Source: Myxococcota bacterium (GTDB lineage: Bacteria; Myxococcota_A; UBA9042; PHBI01; JBMYRH01). Taken from it: a stretch of DNA of 64,000 bases. Position 1 is the stretch's first letter. Each line of letters begins with the position of its first letter. Shown here piece after piece: positions 24,703 to 37,538 of the stretch. The notes beneath the pieces are model-generated. The model made no database searches, had not been told where the DNA came from, and was given only the letters and a program-made list of their open reading frames with translations. The stretch covers positions 95,391-159,390 of the forward strand of contig JBMYRH010000009.1 of assembly GCA_049602155.1 (NCBI GenBank), in the 5' to 3' direction. Position numbers and translations under genes: made by a program.

Positions 24703-26229
24703 TCAGCGCGTGCGCGACCTGCGCATCTGCTTTCCAGCTTTTGGTGCTGCCTTCTCTTTGCTCTTTTTCTTCGCCTTTTGGGGGATCACGTTGACGGACG
24801 GAGGGGCAGGTGCCCGCCTGGTGACTGGACGCTTGGGTACAGCTGTCCGTGTCCGTTTAGGGGTCACCCGTCGCGATCGGGTCGCCGGTGGTGCCACGAT
24901 TTTACGTGTCGTCGTTCGTGGACGCACGGCGGGCCGTGTCGGGCGCGTCGTGCGGGTCGCTTTGGGTCGTGGCGCGGGTCTCGGCGCTGGGCGCTGGGCG
25001 GCAGGTCGCCGTGGTGCTGCGCGTCGCGCTGCTGGCCGCTCCGGCGCTGCACTGCGGCGCCGTTGAGCAGCAGGAGGCTCGCGTGTGGGACGTGACTGAC
25101 CGCTGGGGCGTGCATCTCTCCGACGCTCTGGAGGTTGAGCGTAGCGTGGGTTTGTCGCAGGGAGTGGGCGTCGAGGTTCAGCACGTCGGGTCTCTTCCTC
25201 TTCGTCGTCGCCTCTGTCTTCGGGGCGATACGGCTTGGCCGTCTCGGACCACAGGTGTGTGGCTGCCTCCTCGGTCTTTTTGGGCTTCACGACGACGGTC
25301 GGCGTCGCAGGGCTGTGGCCCTTCGGCTTCACGACGACGGTCGGGGTACTGGATGCCTCGGCATATCGCGCGGCGCGGGTGCGTGTGTGATGGTGAACAT
25401 GACCGTGGCCGTGCGCGTGGTGGTAGTGGGCGTAGTGTCCGTAGAGCAAATGCCCAGGTCGATGCCACGTCCCAGCGACCCAATGGCCTGGGAGCCAGCG
25501 ATGGCCGTCCCAACAGCCGGGGGCCCAGGAGTAACCATGGCGGTGTGCGGGCCGCCAATAGCCCAGCCCCCATACGTAGTTCGTGGCGTAACCGGGGACC
25601 CAAATGAAGCCTGATCGGCGCGTGATTGGTGACCAGTAGCCGCCGTACCAGACGCCGTCTGCGTAGTAGCCGTTGACCCAGGCGTAGCCGTCCATGCTCG
25701 AGGGTCGCCAAAACCCAATCCGCCAAAGGCGCTGTGGGCCCAGGACGTGACCGGGGACCCAGACGGACTCGATCCGGTCGGTCGTGGGGCGCCAGTGACC
25801 TGAGATCCACGCACCGTCATCATCGTAATAGCCGTCGATCCACTCGAAGCCTTCGGCAACCTCGACGCGCCAGAAGCCCTGGACCCACACGCCATCATCG
25901 GCGCGGTGACCGCGCACCCACCGGTAGGTCTCACCGTCTTGAGGCGCCTCGGGGATCCACTGACCGGGGACGTTGAGTCCGTAGTCGTCGACATGAGGTG
26001 GGATCCAACGCTCATCGGGGCGCTCAGGTTCCCTGTAAAACCCCTGAATCCACGTCTCGTCTGCCGCGCGATGTCCAGGGACCCAGACCCACCCATCCGC
26101 TTCGGCTGCAGCGGCGTCAGAGCTATGTGTGATGGACGCGGGCGCTTGCGCATACGCCGGAACAGAGGCGGCACATATGAGCGCCGTCAGCGCGGCTGCG
26201 AGGGTGTGGTTGATTGAAGGGCTGGGCAT
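24703..26229 (-). CDS. Secreted YXWGXW-repeat protein with His-rich tract and basic Pro/Arg/Lys-rich C-terminal tail.
   Basis: Signal peptide MPSPSINHTLAAALTALICAASVPAYAQA, with AGGAG 6 nt upstream of ATG 26229. About 12 Trp/Gly repeats (WVPGHRA, WVRGHRADDGVWVQGFW, GYWSP, GYWRP, WLPGHWVAGTW). His tract HYAHYHHAHGHGHVHHH. The ~170-aa C-terminal tail is rich in R/P/K/T/A. Confidence 0.7.
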   Translation of the reverse strand: MPSPSINHTLAAALTALICAASVPAYAQAPASITHSSDAAAAEADGWVWVPGHRAADETWIQGFYREPERPDERWIPPHVDDYGLNVPGQWIPEAPQDGETYRWVRGHRADDGVWVQGFWRVEVAEGFEWIDGYYDDDGAWISGHWRPTTDRIESVWVPGHVLGPQRLWRIGFWRPSSMDGYAWVNGYYADGVWYGGYWSPITRRSGFIWVPGYATNYVWGLGYWRPAHRHGYSWAPGCWDGHRWLPGHWVAGTWHRPGHLLYGHYAHYHHAHGHGHVHHHTRTRAARYAEASSTPTVVVKPKGHSPATPTVVVKPKKTEEAATHLWSETAKPYRPEDRGDDEEEETRRAEPRRPLPATNPRYAQPPERRRDARPSGQSRPTREPPAAQRRRSAAPERPAARRAAPRRPAAQRPAPRPAPRPKATRTTRPTRPAVRPRTTTRKIVAPPATRSRRVTPKRTRTAVPKRPVTRRAPAPPSVNVIPQKAKKKSKEKAAPKAGKQMRRSRTR

Positions 26230-26404
26230 TGGAGCTCCTAGGTCGCGGGCGTCTGAGAACTCAGACGATGGCCCCCGCGATTTATTCAACGCGCCCTGCA
26301 AGCATGTCGACCCGCGGGTCTCCAGGCAAGACAAAGGCCCCGAAGCTAGGCGCGTGATGGCCAGCCTCGGAGCCCTTGTGGAGACTCACGATCGCGTCGG
26401 TCCG

Positions 26405-29400
26405 CTAGGGAGCGACGACGTGGATATTACCGACCATCATCGGGTGGAACTGACAACGGTAGTTGTAGTAGCCCTCGGTCGCCATGGTGACGGTCACGTT
26501 GCTCGTCGCACCGTCCTGCGCGTCGAAGATCGTGTCCTCAGCACACAGCAACTCGAAGGGATGACCCCCAGAGGCCTCGATGGTCACCGTTTGACCGACC
26601 GCGACGCGTAAGCATTTGGTCGAGTACGGAGAGCCTGCGCCCATGATCGCGACATCGATCGTCCCCTCCATGGCGGTCATATCACCAGCGACGAAGTCCT
26701 CCTCTGTGCAGTCCGCGTAGTCCGCCTCGCAGGCGAACGCGGGCGCGTCCGCCTCACAGACGCCTGCGTTGCAGCTCTCGCCGTCACCGCAAGTGCCACA
26801 GTCGATGGTGCCGCCGCAGCCGTCGGTCTCGGTGCCACAGGTGACGCCGTCGGAGCAGGCGATGGCCGGGGTGCAGTCCGCCTCACAGACGCCCGCGTTG
26901 CAGCTCTCGCCGTCTCCGCAGGTGCCACAGTTGACGGTGCCGCCGCAGCCGTCGTCCATGGTGCCGCAGACCATGCCCTCGGTGCACTCGGTGGCCGGGG
27001 TGCACGTCTCACACGCGCCGCATGTCCCTACACCGTCCGCGAAGCACACAGGCCCCACATCAACGGTCACGCCGCTGTTGACGTCGTCGGCGCCGACCTC
27101 GAAGAAGTAGTTGTTGTTCTCGGTGTCGAAGCTGCACTCGTCGGGTGCGCTGGAGATCACAGACCATGCACCGATGGTGGGCTTCCATTGCCAGGTCTTC
27201 GGTGAGAGGTACTGAGTGAAGCTGTAGATGCCGTCCATATCGGTGTCAGTGCCCGTGTTTGAGCAGGAGCCACACCATTCGTTGAACTCTCCTTGGAAGT
27301 TAGGTGCAGCGCTCGCATCGTAGCTGTTCATGTCGACGTGGAGCTCAACGTGAGCCCAACCGCAGACAGTGGACTCGCCACACTCCCACCATGCGCTTGT
27401 TGCCGTACAGGCCTCGCCATCGAAGCAACCCATGCAATCGCTGGGGCAACCGTTGGCGGCGAACGTCGGCTCATCGCTGACGCATGCACCGTCGGTGCAG
27501 GTCTCACCCTCGCCACAGGCGGGGTCGCACGCCACGGGAGCTTCACAGGCGCCGCAGGTGCCGAAGCCGTCTGCGAAGCACACAGGGCCGACCGCGACAA
27601 CCTCGCCGCTGTTGACGTCGTCTTCGGTGACCTCGAAGAAGTAGTTGCTGTCCTCAGCGTTGAACCGACACCCCTCAGGTGCGCTGGAGATCACAGTCCA
27701 CGATCCGATGCTCGGCTTCCACTGCCAGGTCTTGGGTGAGAGGTACTGCGTGAAGCTGTAGACGCCGTCCATGTCGTCGTCAGTGCCCGTATTGAAGCAG
27801 TCACCGCACCAGTCGTTGAACTCACCCTGGAAGTTGGGCGCAGCGTTCATGTCGTAGTTGTTCATGTCGACGTGGAGCTCGACCTGAGCCCAGCCGCAGA
27901 CAGTGGACTCACCGCAGGTCCACCACTCGTCGGTGGTCGTGCAGGTCGCGCCGTCGTAGCAGCCTTGGCAATCGGTGGGGCAGCCGTTCGCGGCCATGGG
28001 GGTCTCATCCGCCATGCACATGCCCGCGGTGCAGGTCTCGCCGTCGGCGCAGGTGCCGCACTCAAGGGTGCCACCACAGCCGTCGTCCATAGTGCCGCAG
28101 TTCATCGCGCCGCAATCAGCAGCAGGAGTGCATTCTGCGGTGCACATGCCCTCGGAGCAGGTCTCACCGTCGGCGCAAGTGCCGCACTCAATGGTGCCGC
28201 CGCAGCCGTCATCCATGGTGCCGCAGTTCATGGCCTCACCGCACTCGGTCGCTGGCTCGCAAGGATCGCTGCACGCGCCATCGACACAAAGCTGACCGTT
28301 CTCGGAGCAGTCCGTGGTCACGGCGGTGAACTCGCCACAGTCGTCCGCATCCTCATTACAGGACGCGTCGTATTCGGTGAGGATGTCGCCATCACAGGTC
28401 GCCGCTTGCTCACAGAGCGTCGCGGTCATCTCGTGGCCACAACCGTCGGCGTCACAGGTGGGGGCGTAGGTCCGGACCTCGGCCAAGCCGTTGGCTCCGA
28501 CGCACTCGCTGGCCTTCGGGACGTCGCAGTCCTCCACGTCGCTCGTGGTGTACTCACATGCGGTGCCCTCGGCGTTACAGGCGCCGGTGGCCTCGTACGC
28601 CACGATCATCAAGCCCATGCAGCCGTTCGCTTTCGCGTCCGAGCAGAGGCTGATGGTCTCGTCTTGGCCGCACACTCCGTCATCACAGGAGGGGGCGTAG
28701 GTCCAGGTCTGGGCTGCGACGGTGGTCGTGCACAGACCGTCGGTGCAGACCGCATCATCGTCGGCGCAGGGCGTGTCGTCGTCACAGGCGTCGCCCGTGA
28801 GTGAGGTCACGCATGCATCGTCTTGGGCGATATCGCAGTCCGTCGTAGCCTCTTCGTAGCTGCAGGGATCCGAGTCGTCCTCGGTCTCGGCGCAGACGCC
28901 AACTTGGGCGTAGGTCGTCGCCATCAGCCCATCGCAGCTGTCTGCGGGGGGCGCTTCACAAGCGACAGGGGTGTCGACACAGGCGCCAGTGGCGGTCTCG
29001 CAAGCTGAGGTGACGCAGTCGCCAGCGCTCGCGGCGCAGTCGACCTCGCTGTTCGGGACAGGCTTGCACTCACCGGTCTCTTCACCGACGAACTTCTGGC
29101 ATGACCAGATGCCGTTGCACATGTCGCCGTCGTCCAGGGACGCGCAGTCCTCTTCGGTGGTGCAGGCGGCGCAAGGCTCACCGTTACCTGGCTTACATGT
29201 GCCGTTTTGGCAGTAGTCGCCGTCGTTCTCGCAGTCTGCGCCGGGGGCGCAGCCTGTGCAGGGATCGCCGTCATCGCAGGCGAGGTAGTTCTCGACCGGA
29301 GTCAACTCGCACGCGCCCGTGCCTGGGTTGCACGCATTCGTGCGGCATCCACCGTTGTCGGAGCCCTCGGAGCAGGTGACCTCGCTGTCGGCCACTGGGG

Positions 29401-30085
29401 CGCAACTGCCCTCGACACAGCCCCAGAGTCCGTTGCAAAGGTCACCATCGTCGTAGATGGCGCACTCTGCGTCGGTCGAGCATGTGCAGATGTCACCGTC
29501 TTCGGTGACGCCGTTGATCTCTGCCCCTGCGCACGCGCCCTCGGCGCAGACATCGCCGCTCGTGCAGGGGTTGCCGTCGTCGCACACGGCTGCGTTCGCC
29601 GTGTTTGCACAGTCGCCAGTCTCGGCGTCGCAGGTGTCGTCAGTGCAGGGGTTGTCGTCGTCGCAGAGCACCGTCGACACGTCCACACAGAGGCCGCTCG
29701 CGCACTCGCCAATCGTGCACGCCGTCCAGTTCTCCTCGTTGCACGGCGTCCCGTCATCGGACGTCCGCACGACACATTGGCCACTGTCATTGCAGTAGCC
29801 GCCTTCGCAGGTCCCTGCGTCGGGGTGGTCGCATGAGGCCCATGTGCTGCGGGTCTGCTTCACGCAGGTGCCTGCATCACAGACTGCGTCCTCGCACGGC
29901 GTCAGGTCTGAGAAGGTGTCAGCGCACTCGGCGTCATACCCACACTCATGGTCTGGCGTCGGGATGTCCGTCGTGGCCGTCGAGCCAGCATCGGTCGTGG
30001 TGTCGATACCGCCGTCGTCGCTGCAAGCGATGAGCGCTGAGAAGCCAACGAGGATGGCGAGGGTAAAGATTCTGTTGGGCGTCAT
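26405..30085 (-). CDS. Giant Cys-rich multidomain lipoprotein (~1226 aa) with two CBM20/48-like modules and a C-terminal cupredoxin (amicyanin/pseudoazurin-like blue-copper) domain.
   Basis: ATG at 30085 with GGAGGT 9 nt upstream. Lipoprotein signal MTPNRIFTLAILVGFSALIACSDDGG. The N-terminal ~550 aa are myxo-type Cys-rich repeats (CDDDNPCTDDTCD, CDDGNPCTSGDVC, CDDGDPCTGC). There are four CGTMDDGCGGTxECGTCxDGExC modules and two ~145-aa modules with GEFNDWCG...DGVYSFTQYLSPKTWQWKPSIGSW (CBM20/48-like). The C-terminus ...IEASGGHPFEL...EGYYNYRCQFHPMMVGNIHVVAP fits the Y-x-Y-x-C-x-x-H-P-x-M type-1 copper signature. Confidence 0.8.
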   Translation of the reverse strand: MTPNRIFTLAILVGFSALIACSDDGGIDTTTDAGSTATTDIPTPDHECGYDAECADTFSDLTPCEDAVCDAGTCVKQTRSTWASCDHPDAGTCEGGYCNDSGQCVVRTSDDGTPCNEENWTACTIGECASGLCVDVSTVLCDDDNPCTDDTCDAETGDCANTANAAVCDDGNPCTSGDVCAEGACAGAEINGVTEDGDICTCSTDAECAIYDDGDLCNGLWGCVEGSCAPVADSEVTCSEGSDNGGCRTNACNPGTGACELTPVENYLACDDGDPCTGCAPGADCENDGDYCQNGTCKPGNGEPCAACTTEEDCASLDDGDMCNGIWSCQKFVGEETGECKPVPNSEVDCAASAGDCVTSACETATGACVDTPVACEAPPADSCDGLMATTYAQVGVCAETEDDSDPCSYEEATTDCDIAQDDACVTSLTGDACDDDTPCADDDAVCTDGLCTTTVAAQTWTYAPSCDDGVCGQDETISLCSDAKANGCMGLMIVAYEATGACNAEGTACEYTTSDVEDCDVPKASECVGANGLAEVRTYAPTCDADGCGHEMTATLCEQAATCDGDILTEYDASCNEDADDCGEFTAVTTDCSENGQLCVDGACSDPCEPATECGEAMNCGTMDDGCGGTIECGTCADGETCSEGMCTAECTPAADCGAMNCGTMDDGCGGTLECGTCADGETCTAGMCMADETPMAANGCPTDCQGCYDGATCTTTDEWWTCGESTVCGWAQVELHVDMNNYDMNAAPNFQGEFNDWCGDCFNTGTDDDMDGVYSFTQYLSPKTWQWKPSIGSWTVISSAPEGCRFNAEDSNYFFEVTEDDVNSGEVVAVGPVCFADGFGTCGACEAPVACDPACGEGETCTDGACVSDEPTFAANGCPSDCMGCFDGEACTATSAWWECGESTVCGWAHVELHVDMNSYDASAAPNFQGEFNEWCGSCSNTGTDTDMDGIYSFTQYLSPKTWQWKPTIGAWSVISSAPDECSFDTENNNYFFEVGADDVNSGVTVDVGPVCFADGVGTCGACETCTPATECTEGMVCGTMDDGCGGTVNCGTCGDGESCNAGVCEADCTPAIACSDGVTCGTETDGCGGTIDCGTCGDGESCNAGVCEADAPAFACEADYADCTEEDFVAGDMTAMEGTIDVAIMGAGSPYSTKCLRVAVGQTVTIEASGGHPFELLCAEDTIFDAQDGATSNVTVTMATEGYYNYRCQFHPMMVGNIHVVAP
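27000..28080. repeat. Intragenic tandem duplication, 2 copies of ~537 bp at ~85% identity, encoding the two CBM-like modules.
   Basis: Nearly identical stretches. Copy 1 (27181..): gcttccattgccaggtcttcggtgagaggtactgagtgaagctgtagatgccgtccat. Copy 2 (27711..): gcttccactgccaggtcttgggtgagaggtactgcgtgaagctgtagacgccgtccat. Similar antisense ORFs 26769..27110 and 27369..27644 in the track reflect the same repeat. Confidence 0.7.
28080..28300. repeat. Intragenic short tandem module (2 x ~117 bp) encoding CGTMDDGCGGTxECGTCADGETC. A second pair lies at about 26690..27000.
   Basis: Antisense ORF 27975..28295 shows two internal copies of VSPSAQVPHSxVPPQPSSxVPQF, and 26769..27110 shows two copies of LSPSPQVPQ..VPPQPS. 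The protein has four near-identical GC/GT Cys modules. Confidence 0.5.
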
Positions 30086-30298
30086 GAGGGCCGACCTCCG
30101 TGATTTGGGCCGCGTCACAGTATCCGAAGGTTGTGCCCGGGACAACAAGCGCCTGACACCCAATGGTCACTTGTCGTGATTCTGTGCCCGATATCATCAT
30201 AAGTGCTTGTTTACGCTGGTGAATAAAGTTTGGCAATGTGGGTTCGGATCGCCGTACTTCGGTGCCTCAGCAGAGTGATAAAAGAGGCACGACCGCCG

Positions 30299-32608
30299 TC
30301 AGGGGGCCAAGTAGGGGATCCACCGGAGGGGTAGCGGCACCGCAGTGCGGCCCTGCCAATCGAGGCGCTCGATGACCCCAGCCTTCTCTTTGCCGACCCG
30401 AAGGTGTTGGCTCGGGGCCTTGGGCCGAGCGCCTTTGAGGGCCTTCTTCGAGGGCGGCGCCGGGCGCCAGAACCCGAGCTCGTAGCGGACGCGATCTCGC
30501 CACGCGTTCAGCCCCGAGTAGACCCTGACCACGATCAGGCGGCCCTTTTTCCAGGTCCCTTCGGCGCTCAACGTCCTCGCGTTCATCGGCATCTTGGCCT
30601 CTGGTCCATCTTCGTTGAGGGGACGAGAGAGGCGGTTCAAAAAGGGGCGCCATCCCGCGCCAGGGTCGCGGCGGACCTCGAAGACGGCCTCAATCACTTC
30701 ACCATCGCGGTGCATGCTGTGGATGCGGTAGCCGTGGAGTGAGAGCTTCCCACCATAGCGCAGCGCTGGATCGAGGACGGTGCCCAGGGGGGCGAGCCAA
30801 GAGGCGACCTCCGCAGGGGTTTCATTCAGTTGAACCGCCAAGTTGTGGGCTGCGGCGTGCTGCCGGAGGGTCTCTGGTGGCGGGGCGCCCTCGCGGCGGC
30901 TCTCGGCCTGACTCTCATGCCCGGTCGCGAGCAACATCTCTGCTTCGAGCCAGGGGTCTCTCACCAGCGTTTGAGGCGGGTAGACGTGGCTTACGAGCCA
31001 GCGGTGCATCAGGTCGGCGGGCTCAGACTTGAGCCGGAGCCAAGTCACGTCTGGGGTGCTCACGGTCTCCCGCAGATCGATCACCAAGAAGTCCTCGATC
31101 ACGGTCACGGGGTGTTGGCTCATCGCGTCCGTCTGGAGCGCAGGGATCGCGAGCTGGGGGGCGCTCCTGAGGTCCACAACCGCCATCGCAGATCGCGCGA
31201 CGTTCTTTAACACCTTCGTACGCTCTGTGACCTTGATGCGGCGGAACCTTCGGTCCAAGTAGAAGGCAAACTGGAACTTCGCAGTGAGCATCTCATCGTG
31301 GACCGCGATCTGGTCGTCAGGGGTCGTCTGCGTGTGGATCCAGCGCGCCACCACGGCGTGACGTCGTCGGTAGTCTTCACCCTCTTTGGGGGCTGGATCG
31401 GCGAAGCGTGTGCGGTAGTGCGTCCCCGCGATCCCCGACGCACCCTGTAAGAGGATCAAGCCGGTGGCCACCGAGAGGGTGATCGCTCTGGACCACCTTG
31501 GGCCAGGGCGCCACTGAGCCGCGCGCCGAGCCACCTCTGTGAGGGCCACGATCACGTCGGCCCCGGCGATCACGAAGTACACGGCCGCGAACATGGGCCA
31601 GAAGTCGTGGACCCACGCCCCCTGCCTGAAGATCACGACCCACGCAGTCCCCAGCCCCAAGAACGCGAGCGCCGCGTTGTGCTTCATCCCCCATCGCCCC
31701 TCCTTCGCGTCTCGCCGGGCGATCCATGGCCAGAAGAGACCCGCCAGGACCAGGGTAGGGGTCATGAGGTCGACCCATCGAGGCCCTTGGCGGCTCAAGA
31801 CATGAGCCACAGTCTTGCCCTTGCCGTTTTGACGAAAGCGCCCGACGTCTCGAAAGGCTTGGATGAAGTCGTCGCCGCCGTAGAGCTCAGAGAGGTGCCA
31901 CAGGACACCGAAGAAGCCGATGAGTACGGCGGCACAGAAGGGCGCGATCCAGCCCCACTCGATGCGCCGCCGCTTCAGCATGGGGACCGCGACTGTGCAG
32001 GCCAGCCAGAAGGCGAAGACAAACCAAGGCCAGTCTGACCAGGCCCCCAAGATCGCCACCCCTGCGCTCGCTGCGACCCACCTGCGTTGATGCGTCTCAC
32101 ACCACCGCATCCACGTCCAAAGGCTCGCTAGGCAGAAGAGCAGCACCAGGGCCTCTTGATTCACGAAGGGACCGTAGTAGGCGAGCATCGGTGTGGTGAT
32201 GAAGAGGATCATGGCCGCCCAGCGGCCCGGCCCGGAGGGCCACCATCTGCGCGCCATATCCGCGAAGAGTAGGAAGCCTAAGAGCATCAAGATCGCGGGG
32301 ACGAGCCGCGCTTGCCATTCACCGACACCGAAGACGCTGAACGAGGCACCTACGAGCAGGTGAATGCCCACCGGGTGATGCCAGTAGTGCTTAAACTCAT
32401 CTGGCTTGGCCCTTGGGTCGAGGTTCTCGACCGGGCCGTACTTCGCCTTCTCAAACCCGTGCCGCACGAAATTGCGGGCGGCGACGGCGCGTCGCGCGGC
32501 GCACCAACCTTTGTGGCCAAAGAGGAACTCTTCATTCACGCTCTGGAGGTTCACCGCCACAGAGAGGGCGAGGCAGAGGCCCAAGCCGATGCGGTGAAGC
32601 CGTGTCAC
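30299..32608 (-). CDS. Polytopic membrane protein, putative GT-C-fold (PMT/ArnT-like) glycosyltransferase with ~300-aa C-terminal soluble domain.
   Basis: GTG start 32608 immediately after the rlmD stop (32605-32607); the longer track start at 32812 would overlap rlmD by 200 nt. At least 10 hydrophobic helices in the first ~450 aa (LGLCLALSVAVNL, LVPAILMLLGFLLFADM, AAMILFITTPMLAYYGPF, LVLLFCLASLWTWM, ...). The function call is by architecture only. Confidence 0.55.
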   Translation of the reverse strand: MTRLHRIGLGLCLALSVAVNLQSVNEEFLFGHKGWCAARRAVAARNFVRHGFEKAKYGPVENLDPRAKPDEFKHYWHHPVGIHLLVGASFSVFGVGEWQARLVPAILMLLGFLLFADMARRWWPSGPGRWAAMILFITTPMLAYYGPFVNQEALVLLFCLASLWTWMRWCETHQRRWVAASAGVAILGAWSDWPWFVFAFWLACTVAVPMLKRRRIEWGWIAPFCAAVLIGFFGVLWHLSELYGGDDFIQAFRDVGRFRQNGKGKTVAHVLSRQGPRWVDLMTPTLVLAGLFWPWIARRDAKEGRWGMKHNAALAFLGLGTAWVVIFRQGAWVHDFWPMFAAVYFVIAGADVIVALTEVARRAAQWRPGPRWSRAITLSVATGLILLQGASGIAGTHYRTRFADPAPKEGEDYRRRHAVVARWIHTQTTPDDQIAVHDEMLTAKFQFAFYLDRRFRRIKVTERTKVLKNVARSAMAVVDLRSAPQLAIPALQTDAMSQHPVTVIEDFLVIDLRETVSTPDVTWLRLKSEPADLMHRWLVSHVYPPQTLVRDPWLEAEMLLATGHESQAESRREGAPPPETLRQHAAAHNLAVQLNETPAEVASWLAPLGTVLDPALRYGGKLSLHGYRIHSMHRDGEVIEAVFEVRRDPGAGWRPFLNRLSRPLNEDGPEAKMPMNARTLSAEGTWKKGRLIVVRVYSGLNAWRDRVRYELGFWRPAPPSKKALKGARPKAPSQHLRVGKEKAGVIERLDWQGRTAVPLPLRWIPYLAP

Positions 32609-33981
32609 TGCGCAGCTCGGCGCAGGGCCACCCCGACCTCCACGTGTGGGGTGTGGGGGAACATGTCGAAGGTCGCGACGTCGGTGATGACGAACCCAGC
32701 GTCGATCAAGCGCTTGAGATCCCGGCTCAGGCTTCTTGATTCGCATGAGGCGTAGATCACCGTGACCTCGCCTTTCAGCGCCGTGATCGCGTCGATGACA
32801 GCCGGCGCGCACCCTGCGCGAGGGGGATCTAGGATGACCGCGTCCGCCCCCTCGGCGAGGACGCGTGGGGCGGCTGTCGCGGCGTCCTCGGTGATGGCGG
32901 TGACTGCGGAGGCCTCAAGCAGCTCGATGTTCCGCATCGAGTCCTCGGAGGCGAGCGGGTGACTCTCGATGAGGGTCACTCGGTCGGCGCGCGCGCGGCT
33001 CGCGAGCCCTAAGACGCCGGCGCCGGCGTAGAGATCGACCAGGTGTGTCATCCGCTCAGGGAGCCACTGCCCCAGGGTCGTCACCATGGCCTCTGCCATG
33101 TCATGTCGCGTCTGTATAAAAGAGGTCGGCCCCACCTGGAGGTTGAGATCGCCGTAGGAGACGCTCTGCCGCCGCTTGCCTCGCAGATGGACGTTCCGTT
33201 CGCCGAGCATCGGCCCAGAGCCCTTGGGGTTGATGTTGGCGTGGACGCCGCAGACCCCCTCGATCCGGATCAACTGTTGAGCGGCCTGAGCGACCTTGGG
33301 GCCCGGCTTGACCGAGAGGATGAGGGTCAGGATCCCCTCCTCGCGGCCCGGATCGACCCGATACAGGAACCCACGGATCACCCCAGGGCGCTCTTCACTT
33401 CGCCATGTCGGCCAGTCAAGCCGTGCCAAGATGTGGTGAGCGTGCTTGAGGACGCTGTTGACCCGTCGATGTTGAATGACGCAGCTGTCGACCGGGACCA
33501 AGTCCTGGGTCCCCGGCGCATAAAACCCCATCCGCATGGATCCACCGCGATGCCGAAGCACCATGAGCGCACGGGTGCGGTACCCGAGGCTGTACTCCGG
33601 ACCAATCCACCCATGATGCCGGGTCGCGTCGTCGCAAAGGGGCGCCAAGAGCTCCTTCACCTGAGTGGCTCGAACCTCTCTCTGCAGCGACATCGAGGCG
33701 GGCTGCCAGGGGCATCCACCGCAGCTCGTGACGACCGGGCAGGGCGCCTCGACCCGATATTTAGAGGGCTCAGTCAGCGTCTGAATTTGCCCCACGTTGA
33801 TGTGCTTGCCCGTGTGCGTAATACGCAGCTGAGCGGAGTCGCCAGGCACGCCGCCTAGGACGCGCACCTCAGCGTCTCCGACCCGCGCCAGTGAGCCACC
33901 ACGTCGCTCGAGCGACGTGATGGTGGCCTCCACCAAGTCACCTTGATTGAAGGGTCGCTTACGCCGAGGTGACTTGGCCAT
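32605..33981 (-). CDS. rlmD: 23S rRNA (uracil-C5)-methyltransferase RlmD/RumA-like (TRAM plus 4Fe-4S plus SAM methyltransferase).
   Basis: The internal ATG (MAKSPRRKRPFNQGDLVEATITSLERRG) is chosen. TRAM-like N-terminus, Cys cluster CPVVTSCGGCPW, SAM-MTase motifs DLYAGAGVLG and ILDPPRAG, and C-terminal VIYASCES. Confidence 0.85.
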   Translation of the reverse strand: MAKSPRRKRPFNQGDLVEATITSLERRGGSLARVGDAEVRVLGGVPGDSAQLRITHTGKHINVGQIQTLTEPSKYRVEAPCPVVTSCGGCPWQPASMSLQREVRATQVKELLAPLCDDATRHHGWIGPEYSLGYRTRALMVLRHRGGSMRMGFYAPGTQDLVPVDSCVIQHRRVNSVLKHAHHILARLDWPTWRSEERPGVIRGFLYRVDPGREEGILTLILSVKPGPKVAQAAQQLIRIEGVCGVHANINPKGSGPMLGERNVHLRGKRRQSVSYGDLNLQVGPTSFIQTRHDMAEAMVTTLGQWLPERMTHLVDLYAGAGVLGLASRARADRVTLIESHPLASEDSMRNIELLEASAVTAITEDAATAAPRVLAEGADAVILDPPRAGCAPAVIDAITALKGEVTVIYASCESRSLSRDLKRLIDAGFVITDVATFDMFPHTPHVEVGVALRRAAQ

Positions 33982-33983
33982 GA

Positions 33984-37538
<3,555 letters not shown>

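Follow-up and report, generated by a model that had tools for sequence, protein, structure and literature searches.

A Myxococcota lipoprotein that joins CBM48-like modules to a C-terminal cupredoxin domain on a disulfide-rich stalk

In textbooks, cupredoxins appear as electron carriers of the periplasm, either soluble or on a short tether, and carbohydrate-binding modules (CBMs) as appendages of glycan-active enzymes. Both occur together in a protein encoded on contig JBMYRH010000009.1 of a marine Myxococcota bacterium (assembly GCA_049602155.1), of which a 64,000-nucleotide stretch, hereafter the window, was analysed. The gene (26405..30085, minus strand; ACPGU1_10580, protein MGB0590113.1) encodes a predicted lipoprotein of 1226 amino acids, followed by a stop codon at 26405-26407, in which a Cys-rich stalk carries two CBM48-like modules and ends in a cupredoxin domain. 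The coding sequence is defined by its open reading frame and translation, by an exact match in NCBI and by a syntenic orthologue (P0003). The joining of CBM and cupredoxin is real, recurs in other proteins and is undescribed in the open-access literature. The explanation that accounts best for the data is an outward-facing stalked lipoprotein with a copper head, which would dock on glycans and exchange single electrons; we hold it to be probable and no more than that, because its functional core is a modest one. A first-pass annotation of the sequence had proposed this order of modules, and all the elements that it listed were found in the translation, with minor corrections.

The cupredoxin domain occupies residues 1112-1226 (115 amino acids; 26408..26752, minus strand), reaches the last residue of the protein and was recognised by phmmer, by profile searches and by AF2/Foldseek. 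The four predicted copper ligands are His1175 (26561-26563), Cys1211 (26453-26455), His1214 (26444-26446) and Met1217 (26435-26437), their codons spanning 26435..26563 on the minus strand, and the ligand loop reads C1211-Q-F-H1214-P-M-M1217. When the domain was compared with the PDB by phmmer, amicyanin and pseudoazurin were retrieved at E about 1e-3. In these alignments the GGH of the query falls on the GH of pseudoazurin, and its C..H..M on that of each of the two proteins, residues which we take to be the copper ligands of those proteins; the placement of the first His relative to amicyanin is ambiguous by 2-3 residues. The 50 best PDB matches listed by Foldseek for the AF2 model of the domain (predicted local distance difference test, pLDDT, 74) have E values from 1.8e-5 to 3e-4 and are without exception blue-copper proteins (plastocyanin, amicyanin, pseudoazurin, a purple cupredoxin and a cupredoxin_1 protein) or the cupredoxin domain of the Cu nitrite reductase NirK.

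The putative metal site is strictly maintained among the relatives. His, Cys, His and Met are invariant in five close copies (alignment A1), and in the 22 sequences of the closest subfamily (alignment A4), which are 41-66% identical to the query domain, the positions C4, C11, C43, H60, P61, C66, C96, H99 and M102 do not vary. The profile built from A4 matched amicyanin in the PDB along practically the entire domain (E 1.1e-7), its nine best matches all being amicyanin, and the relatives P0133 (23.5) and P0139 (21.8) reach the gathering score of PF00127 (21.2). The blue-copper identity and the ligand pattern claimed in the first-pass annotation are thus borne out, both by profile and fold matches, with amicyanin and pseudoazurin closest, and by the invariance of the ligands in the 22 homologues. 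Copper binding by the domain, in a type-1 site, is very likely. C1119/C1126 and C1158/C1181 are probably disulfides, and C1211 is the predicted copper ligand.

The domain is amicyanin-like, yet it is no amicyanin proper. It shares the fold of amicyanin and pseudoazurin (PF00127, TIGR02657, TIGR02375), which are its best profile and fold matches, as well as the His...Cys-x2-His-x2-Met set with the short loop of amicyanin, at an identity of about 25-28% in fold alignments. However, the scores with the NCBIfam models are 14.7 for amicyanin and 12.7 for pseudoazurin, and the first, compared with the cut-off of 110.2 bits for the amicyanin equivalog TIGR02657, indicates that the query is not an orthologue. 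The context of a methylamine dehydrogenase or a nitrite reductase is lacking, and no mau (methylamine dehydrogenase) genes were found in the window. In the query domain, moreover, the N-terminus is extended and two further Cys pairs are conserved, and it is the final domain of a 1226-residue lipoprotein, whereas amicyanin and pseudoazurin are free periplasmic proteins of about 105 amino acids. It also has His-Pro in place of His-Asn. The residue that usually comes after the first His ligand in cupredoxins is Asn, and in all 22 members of A4 this position is an invariant Pro (HPF; query residues 1175-1176, 26558-26563), which may tune the redox potential or the rigidity of the loop.

The two CBM48/CBM20/X25-like modules are about 76% identical to each other. 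Module A extends over residues 692-848 (157 amino acids; 27542..28012, minus strand), with W759, K790 and W796 as putative sugar-binding residues, and module B over residues 872-1026 (155 amino acids; 27008..27472, minus strand), with W937, K968 and W974 in the equivalent role. In module A a knot of six Cys at the N-terminus precedes the beta-sandwich core, and the module also has the invariant WCGxC and a loop of DxDxDG-like type. The linker that had been announced between the modules is present, although the sequence of this stretch (residues 849-871; 27473..27541, minus strand) reveals a short module with four Cys, that is, a shortened Cys module in itself. The 50 best Foldseek matches listed for the model of a module are CBM20/48 modules only, in agreement with a predicted beta-sandwich of the starch-binding-domain type. 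Sequence searches of the PDB with a single module or with a profile of seven sequences gave nothing meaningful, whereas a profile of 12 sequences (alignment A3) reached pullulanase and AMPK beta, weakly. This profile includes both modules, and its recovery of modules A and B is by construction.

Relatives and conserved residues lead to the same assignment. A scan of metagenomes for the module signature yielded 13 loci. The module at locus L005, which is 67% identical to the query module, passes the X25 threshold (36.2 against 27), and at the position of the signature the distant QGxFNxWCGxC modules of L011/L013 score 40-45 bits with AMPK1_CBM and 27-40 bits with CBM_48, the gathering thresholds of Pfam being 27 for X25, 26.8 for AMPK1_CBM and 22.4 for CBM_48. 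In A3 (n = 12) the FNxW Trp does not vary and the Trp of the G-x-W farther on is conserved in at least 90%, and when the A3 profile is aligned to AMPK beta2, FNxW pairs with FNNW, QWK with QYK, and the IGxW of the query with DGQW. Residues W759/W937 of the query lie within FNxW, K790/K968 within QWK and W796/W974 within IGxW, and these aligned positions presumably correspond to the sugar-contact residues W100, K126 and W133 of AMPK beta1. The modules hence keep, in their sequence, the AMPK-beta-like Trp/Lys/Trp positions for putative sugar contacts. Sequence and fold together identify both as beta-sandwiches of the starch-binding-domain type (CBM48/CBM20/X25 superfamily); the CBM20/48 identity claimed earlier is upheld by a fold search that gives only CBM20/48, by relatives that pass the Pfam thresholds and by the aligned binding-site aromatics. 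It was also checked whether the C-terminal segment would fall into another fold, whether homologues would lose the ligands and whether the modules would lack the CBM20/48 aromatics or fold, and none of this was found.

The modules share with AMPK beta, SEX4, laforin, STBD1, glucoamylase and pullulanase the beta-sandwich fold and the motif G-x-F-N-x-W ... Y/W-x-Y/W-K ... G-x-W. They differ in the invariant W-C-G-x-C, the extra disulfides and the DxDxDG-like loop, and, in Myxococcota, in the N-terminal 6-Cys knot; besides, the relatives of this subfamily occur with GH16 and acyltransferases and not with GH13. Glycan binding by the modules is fairly likely. The ligand may differ from an alpha-glucan, given the co-occurrence with GH16 in relatives.

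Some further features of this subfamily deserve mention. The invariant W-C-G-x-C (27776-27790 and 27242-27256; residues 759-763 and 937-941) comes directly after the putative sugar-stacking Trp and yields weak matches to the thioredoxin active sites of the protein disulfide isomerase (PDI) type (WCGHC). A thioredoxin/PDI-like reading of the motif (weak TXNDC5 matches) was discarded, since the coverage is limited to the motif and the surrounding fold is the CBM beta-sandwich. The two Cys are probably structural and paired with C78/C116 of alignment A3, or may be a redox-active CxxC beside the binding site. The DxDxDG-like loop, which reads DDDMDG at 771-776 (27758-27775) and DTDMDG at 949-954 (27224-27241), has Asp positions D41 and D45 invariant in A3 and looks similar to calcium-binding loops. 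Modules with the QGxFNxWCGxC signature are found as a loop insert in Acyl_transf_3 membrane proteins (L007 2222-2602, L008 4449-4829, L014, L016), with a GH16 catalytic domain on one side and a dockerin on the other (L009 1318-1614, L010), and in multi-CBM proteins of low-GC marine contigs (L011-L013, L017), some of them with a type IX secretion system (T9SS) C-terminal sorting tail. An 870-residue lipoprotein (L005 3862-6471) has two copies of the CBM48-like module together with two 'TGPWWSW...DEDGDGIY' CBM-like modules and a central beta-sandwich; since it has no cupredoxin, the CBM48-like module is also used without the copper head.

The copper domain, on its side, is used without the CBMs. 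An exhaustive profile search covering 1.8 billion representatives gave 1716 cupredoxin relatives, 39 of them at E ≤ 1e-30; it was used together with pattern scans, as word-indexed searches for homologues of single domains returned only 2 and 4 matches and missed known relatives. About 30 cluster representatives with a single domain have only the C-terminal cupredoxin in common. Their length varies from 196 to 1549 amino acids. In almost every complete member the cupredoxin is followed by only 0-3 residues, and most complete members have a lipobox-like motif at the N-terminus, as detected with a loose regular expression. The middle parts are highly diverse: a short linker alone separates lipobox and cupredoxin in P0137, P0148 and P0150 (196-227 amino acids), a lamin-tail domain (LTD) is found in P0138, a MopE-type Cys motif in P0139, EGF in P0141 and P0154, MAM plus Dicty repeats in P0082 and P0128, and DUF7282 in P0132. 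In P0129 a canonical AMPK1_CBM (51.6 bits) is joined to the same cupredoxin, while the Cys-stabilised CBM48-like module accompanies it in the query, in P0127 and in P0003, the last of which has the architecture of the query plus an inserted fasciclin and an LTD. The pairing of a CBM48-type module with the cupredoxin recurs with two different CBM48-type modules, and most members of the family are without any CBM. A variable middle between constant ends implies that the conserved unit is the lipid anchor and the distal cupredoxin, the CBMs being one type of interchangeable insert. The CBM modules are optional accessories, and the link to glycans is no defining feature of the family. Domain shuffling on the Cys-rich surface proteins of Myxococcota is common, indeed rampant.

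Two observations concern other members of this group. P0132 (MGB0588198.1; L018 10001-11545), labelled in NCBI 'cupredoxin domain-containing protein' and composed of DUF7282, an acidic linker and the cupredoxin, apparently derives from the same metagenome-assembled genome (MAG) as the query, judging from the adjacent series of NCBI accessions, and would be a second stalked cupredoxin lipoprotein there; about 3 kb downstream of its gene (L018 14852-21545) a 2525-residue protein with an eCIS_core domain is encoded. A second class of relatives (P0135, P0136, P0140, P0143 and others) is formed by 4-9 tandem type-1-copper cupredoxin repeats connected by Pro/Ala-rich linkers. One of them, P0135 (1064 amino acids), starts with a signal, contains 7 repeats and has a transmembrane helix at its C-terminus. 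No annotation was found for the tandem proteins, which could be multi-copper 'wires' on the cell surface.

At its other end the query begins, according to its sequence, with a signal peptide and the lipobox L-I-A-C (residues 1-21; 30023..30085, minus strand), Cys21 being the predicted lipidated +1 residue. The pattern [LVI][ASTVI][GAS]C is satisfied by MTPNRIFTLAILVGFSALIA-C21, and the orthologue P0003 carries LVVAC; the lipoprotein signal of the first-pass annotation is accordingly present in both proteins. The predicted mature N-terminus is C-S-D-D-G-G-I. Then comes the stalk (residues 22-606; 28268..30022, minus strand), acidic, heterogeneous and with 74 Cys. It had been described as about 550 residues of myxo-type Cys repeats, and a disulfide-rich stalk is indeed there, though it consists of several types of repeat: it holds a duplicated DGD(L/M)CNG(L/I)W(G/S)C unit, and the literal CDDGNPCT appears in just three copies (residues 141, 168 and 270). 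Dicty_CTDC (PF00526) remains below threshold (21.6 against 27), and the TIGR02232 profile of the Myxococcus cysteine-rich repeat, with which a match had been envisaged, gave none among the NCBIfam models at E ≤ 1. Relatives of the stalk are abundant, 3863 having been found, and the Myxococcota relatives that carry PF00526 number in the thousands.

The two pairs of Cys modules that had been claimed were also located in the sequence. The first pair, of about 42 residues each and of the type 'CGTMDDGCGGT..CGTC.DGE.C', covers residues 607-691 (28013..28267, minus strand; 16 Cys), and the second, 'CG..DGCGGT..CGTCGDGESC', residues 1027-1111 (26753..27007, minus strand; 16 Cys). Modules of the CGTMDDGCGGT type also stand ahead of the cupredoxin in P0082, P0128, P0129 and P0133. 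In total the protein (123 kDa) has 140 Cys (11.4%) and only 9 His, and is very acidic, with an isoelectric point of about 4. Cys numbers are even in all modules, the exceptions being the single lipobox Cys and the five Cys of the cupredoxin; this parity is the one expected if all Cys pair as disulfides bar the lipidated Cys and the copper-ligand Cys.

A mechanism can be proposed from these elements. The protein would be exported by the Sec pathway and then lipidated at Cys21, 138 Cys would be oxidised to form 69 disulfides, and Cys1211 would be kept for copper. Sorting to the outer membrane would follow, most likely with an outward orientation. In Myxococcus xanthus lipoproteins, Lys at +2 is the signal for inner-membrane retention and Ala at +7 directs them to the matrix (PMC3222651). 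The query has Ser at +2 and Ile at +7, and the presence of Ser with no retention Lys suggests the outer membrane as its destination. The outward orientation, which we consider moderately probable, is suggested by the long stalk and by the adhesion modules of extracellular type in the family. The stalk would then hold a one-electron copper redox centre at its distal tip, the CBM modules might dock it on a glycan, alpha-glucan-like or otherwise, of the cell's own matrix, of prey or of a particle surface, and the copper domain would swap single electrons with a partner.

Several points weigh against this interpretation. The query itself scores 15.8 bits (E 0.019) with Copper-bind (PF00127), below the threshold of 21.2, and 22.5 with X25 (X25_BaPul_like), below the gathering threshold of 27; the AF2 models of the cupredoxin and the CBM module are of moderate confidence (pLDDT 74-75), the alignments behind them being shallow, with 5 and 7 sequences; His-Pro in place of the usual His-Asn implies that the copper site may have atypical properties; and related modules accompany GH16 and acyltransferases and not alpha-glucan enzymes alone. 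Concerning location, the gonococcal Laz, which is the best-known lipid-anchored cupredoxin, is not surface exposed (PMC6277709). Nothing in the inspected loci indicates where electrons would come from or go to outside the cell, and no copper-handling or redox-partner gene was found in the window or beside the homologues. No carbohydrate-active enzyme (CAZyme), lytic polysaccharide monooxygenase (LPMO), glycoside hydrolase, cytochrome or copper enzyme is encoded in the window or in the related loci inspected, and electron transfer at a polysaccharide surface accordingly stays a proposal.

Other explanations were also weighed. The protein could be a membrane-tethered shuttle that faces the periplasm and, in the manner of auracyanin, Laz and other anchored cupredoxins, carries electrons between respiratory enzymes, in which case the stalk and the CBM-like modules would be spacers or contacts to peptidoglycan or periplasmic glucans. 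Laz of Neisseria, auracyanin A and halocyanin have, like the query, an N-terminal lipobox, a linker and a C-terminal cupredoxin, and the smallest members of the family (196-227 amino acids), reduced to lipobox, short linker and cupredoxin, are directly comparable to them and have the layout of known anchored shuttles; Laz was shown not to be surface exposed (PMC6277709), and a CxxCH search of the window disclosed no outer-membrane electron conduit nearby. However, Laz is an azurin with a short linker of the AAEAP type (PMC6277709), whereas the query is amicyanin-like and has a disulfide stalk of about 1100 residues with CBMs. Such a stalk, and the CBM, fasciclin, LTD, MAM and EGF inserts of the family, are ill-suited to diffusion in a narrow periplasm; moreover, the +2 residue differs from the retention Lys of M. 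xanthus, and respiratory genes are not adjacent. We therefore regard a periplasmic shuttle as unlikely, without being negligible. The absence of an electron-transfer partner in any inspected context would fit a protein that captures, buffers or delivers copper at the cell surface, for copper defence, for supplying secreted cuproenzymes or for concentrating the metal at the interface with prey, and both the complete and invariant copper site and its display on varied adhesion scaffolds would be compatible with such a task. Nevertheless, type-1 sites hold copper tightly buried and are classic electron-transfer centres, a single copper per 123-kDa protein makes for a poor buffering capacity, and with 9 His in the whole protein there are no extra His/Met-rich motifs. 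This function appears improbable.

The first-pass annotation had proposed a redox partner for oxidative attack on polysaccharides, or extracellular electron transfer. In this reading the cupredoxin would be kept on a polysaccharide by the CBMs, and could there reduce an LPMO-type enzyme or exchange electrons, in either direction, with extracellular substrates. There is a precedent for the design in Cbp2D/Cbp2E of Cellvibrio japonicus and TERTU_3803 of Teredinibacter turnerae, in which, as in the query, CBMs are linked to small electron-transfer domains, suggesting polysaccharide-targeted redox chemistry (PMC8981238, PMC10916295, PMC12542752). Redox proteins with appended CBMs such as Cbp2D/Cbp2E do exist, then, and can reduce LPMOs (PMC8981238, PMC10916295), and the recurrence of the CBM48 and cupredoxin pairing with two different CBM48-type modules goes in the same direction. 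The similarity is an analogy of design only, with no homology: proteins of the Cbp2D/E type combine X183 c-type cytochrome, X158 YceI-like and X132 domains with CBM2/CBM10 and have no cupredoxin, a word that does not occur in PMC10916295, whereas no CxxCH motif was found in the query open reading frame, and Pfam detects neither a cytochrome nor a YceI domain there. The hosts of Cbp2D/E are cellulolytic and have LPMOs, a context not seen at the query locus. The proposed role has no contextual support in the window or in homologous loci, where LPMOs, glycoside hydrolases and cytochrome conduits are missing; the majority of the family is without CBM, there is no known route by which electrons would reach an outward-facing cupredoxin, and no description of cupredoxins as bacterial LPMO partners was found in open-access full text. 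We judge this role to be as improbable as copper handling. Finally, the C-terminal beta-sandwich might be mainly a tag for sorting or anchoring, like C-terminal secretion domains, with its redox role lost or never present. Such a tag would be expected to stand, as the domain always does, at the very end of the protein (0-3 residues remaining) behind very different upstream contents, but all four copper ligands are invariant among sequences 41-66% identical to the query domain, and fold and profile match blue-copper proteins specifically. Because of this invariance the tag is kept only as a minor rival, which is highly improbable.

Taken as a whole, the query belongs to the cupredoxin and to the starch-binding-domain superfamilies and, in its full length, to no curated family. 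The identical 1226-residue protein MGB0590113.1 is labelled in NCBI 'MAG: hypothetical protein ACPGU1_10580 [Myxococcota bacterium]'. This label, and the fact that no paper on a CBM-cupredoxin lipoprotein was found in open-access full text, agree with the earlier claim that no family with this architecture has been described.

The limits of the gene required one decision. The open reading frame as listed is 26405..30163 on the minus strand and begins at an upstream TTG, and an in-frame ATG at 30085 gives the 1226-residue product. The ATG was accepted because a GGAGG lies 10-14 nt upstream, because P0003 has the equivalent Met and because the NCBI record has identical length; the TTG start at 30163 was discarded, since all three favour the ATG. 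This GGAGG, read from the upstream sequence, is the Shine-Dalgarno-like element at 30095..30099 (minus strand). About 110 nt 5' of the ATG there is a sigma-70-like promoter match, TTCACC-16-TATGAT (30196..30223, minus strand; 1 site against 0.5 expected in shuffles), a weak indication that suggests a promoter of its own for the lipoprotein gene.

The window is otherwise devoted to housekeeping and envelope biogenesis (ParAB, malic enzyme, TamB/BamA, Ser/Thr kinases, an S8 peptidase with FG-GAP repeats, a PMT_2 glycosyltransferase, tRNA enzymes, glutathione synthetase and DnaJ). Within it no second copy of the cupredoxin or of the CBM was found, and the CxxCH search for cytochrome motifs retrieved none. 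Synteny is limited to the locus of the close orthologue P0003 (L001), which has, in this order, the S8 peptidase, a RumA-like methyltransferase, PMT_2, the lipoprotein and a Trp-rich protein; L002, L004, L018, L019 and the contig of P0082 have no neighbour gene in common. Directly upstream of the lipoprotein gene and on the same strand is the gene of the PMT_2-family GT-C glycosyltransferase (30299-32812, minus strand), whose position is kept in L001. This enzyme could glycosylate the Thr/Ser-rich lipoprotein, although the synteny may be due to nothing more than close relationship. The gene of the paralogue P0132 likewise has a PMT_2 gene in its surroundings, at a distance of about 10 kb. Directly downstream, a Trp-rich repeat protein of 543 amino acids (24703-26334, minus strand; W.PGH(W/R), G(F/Y)(Y/W)R) is encoded, which has no Pfam match, ends in a tail of about 200 residues rich in Pro, Arg and Lys, and is 60% identical to its L001 counterpart over the available N-terminal part. 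The S8 subtilase (33984-37538, minus strand; 1184 amino acids), with FG-GAP/VCBS-like repeats and syntenic with the lipoprotein in L001, is possibly a secreted protease.

An invariant distal copper head in lipoproteins of up to about 1500 amino acids, whose middles are swapped among adhesion and glycan-binding modules, points to a copper redox centre that is delivered to extracellular targets. Marine Myxococcota may, as a speculative extension that we think unlikely, have a family of outward lipoproteins with a blue-copper head on a disulfide stalk, in which adhesion modules aim at extracellular targets and which would perform a copper-based, iron-sparing and contact-dependent redox chemistry on glycans, matrix or prey. 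A copper system of this kind would differ from multihaem-cytochrome conduits and from the known LPMO partners. If the head works outside the cell, extracellular electron transfer in iron-poor seawater would have a copper-based route as an alternative to cytochromes, and the protein might serve as a redox partner of a new kind in the attack on polysaccharides or prey. If it is periplasmic, these proteins would still form a clade of anchored cupredoxins, uncharacterised so far and unusual in the His-Pro of their second sphere, and the Cys-stabilised QGxFNxWCGxC modules would, even so, be a new CBM48-like subfamily that is widespread in marine metagenomes.

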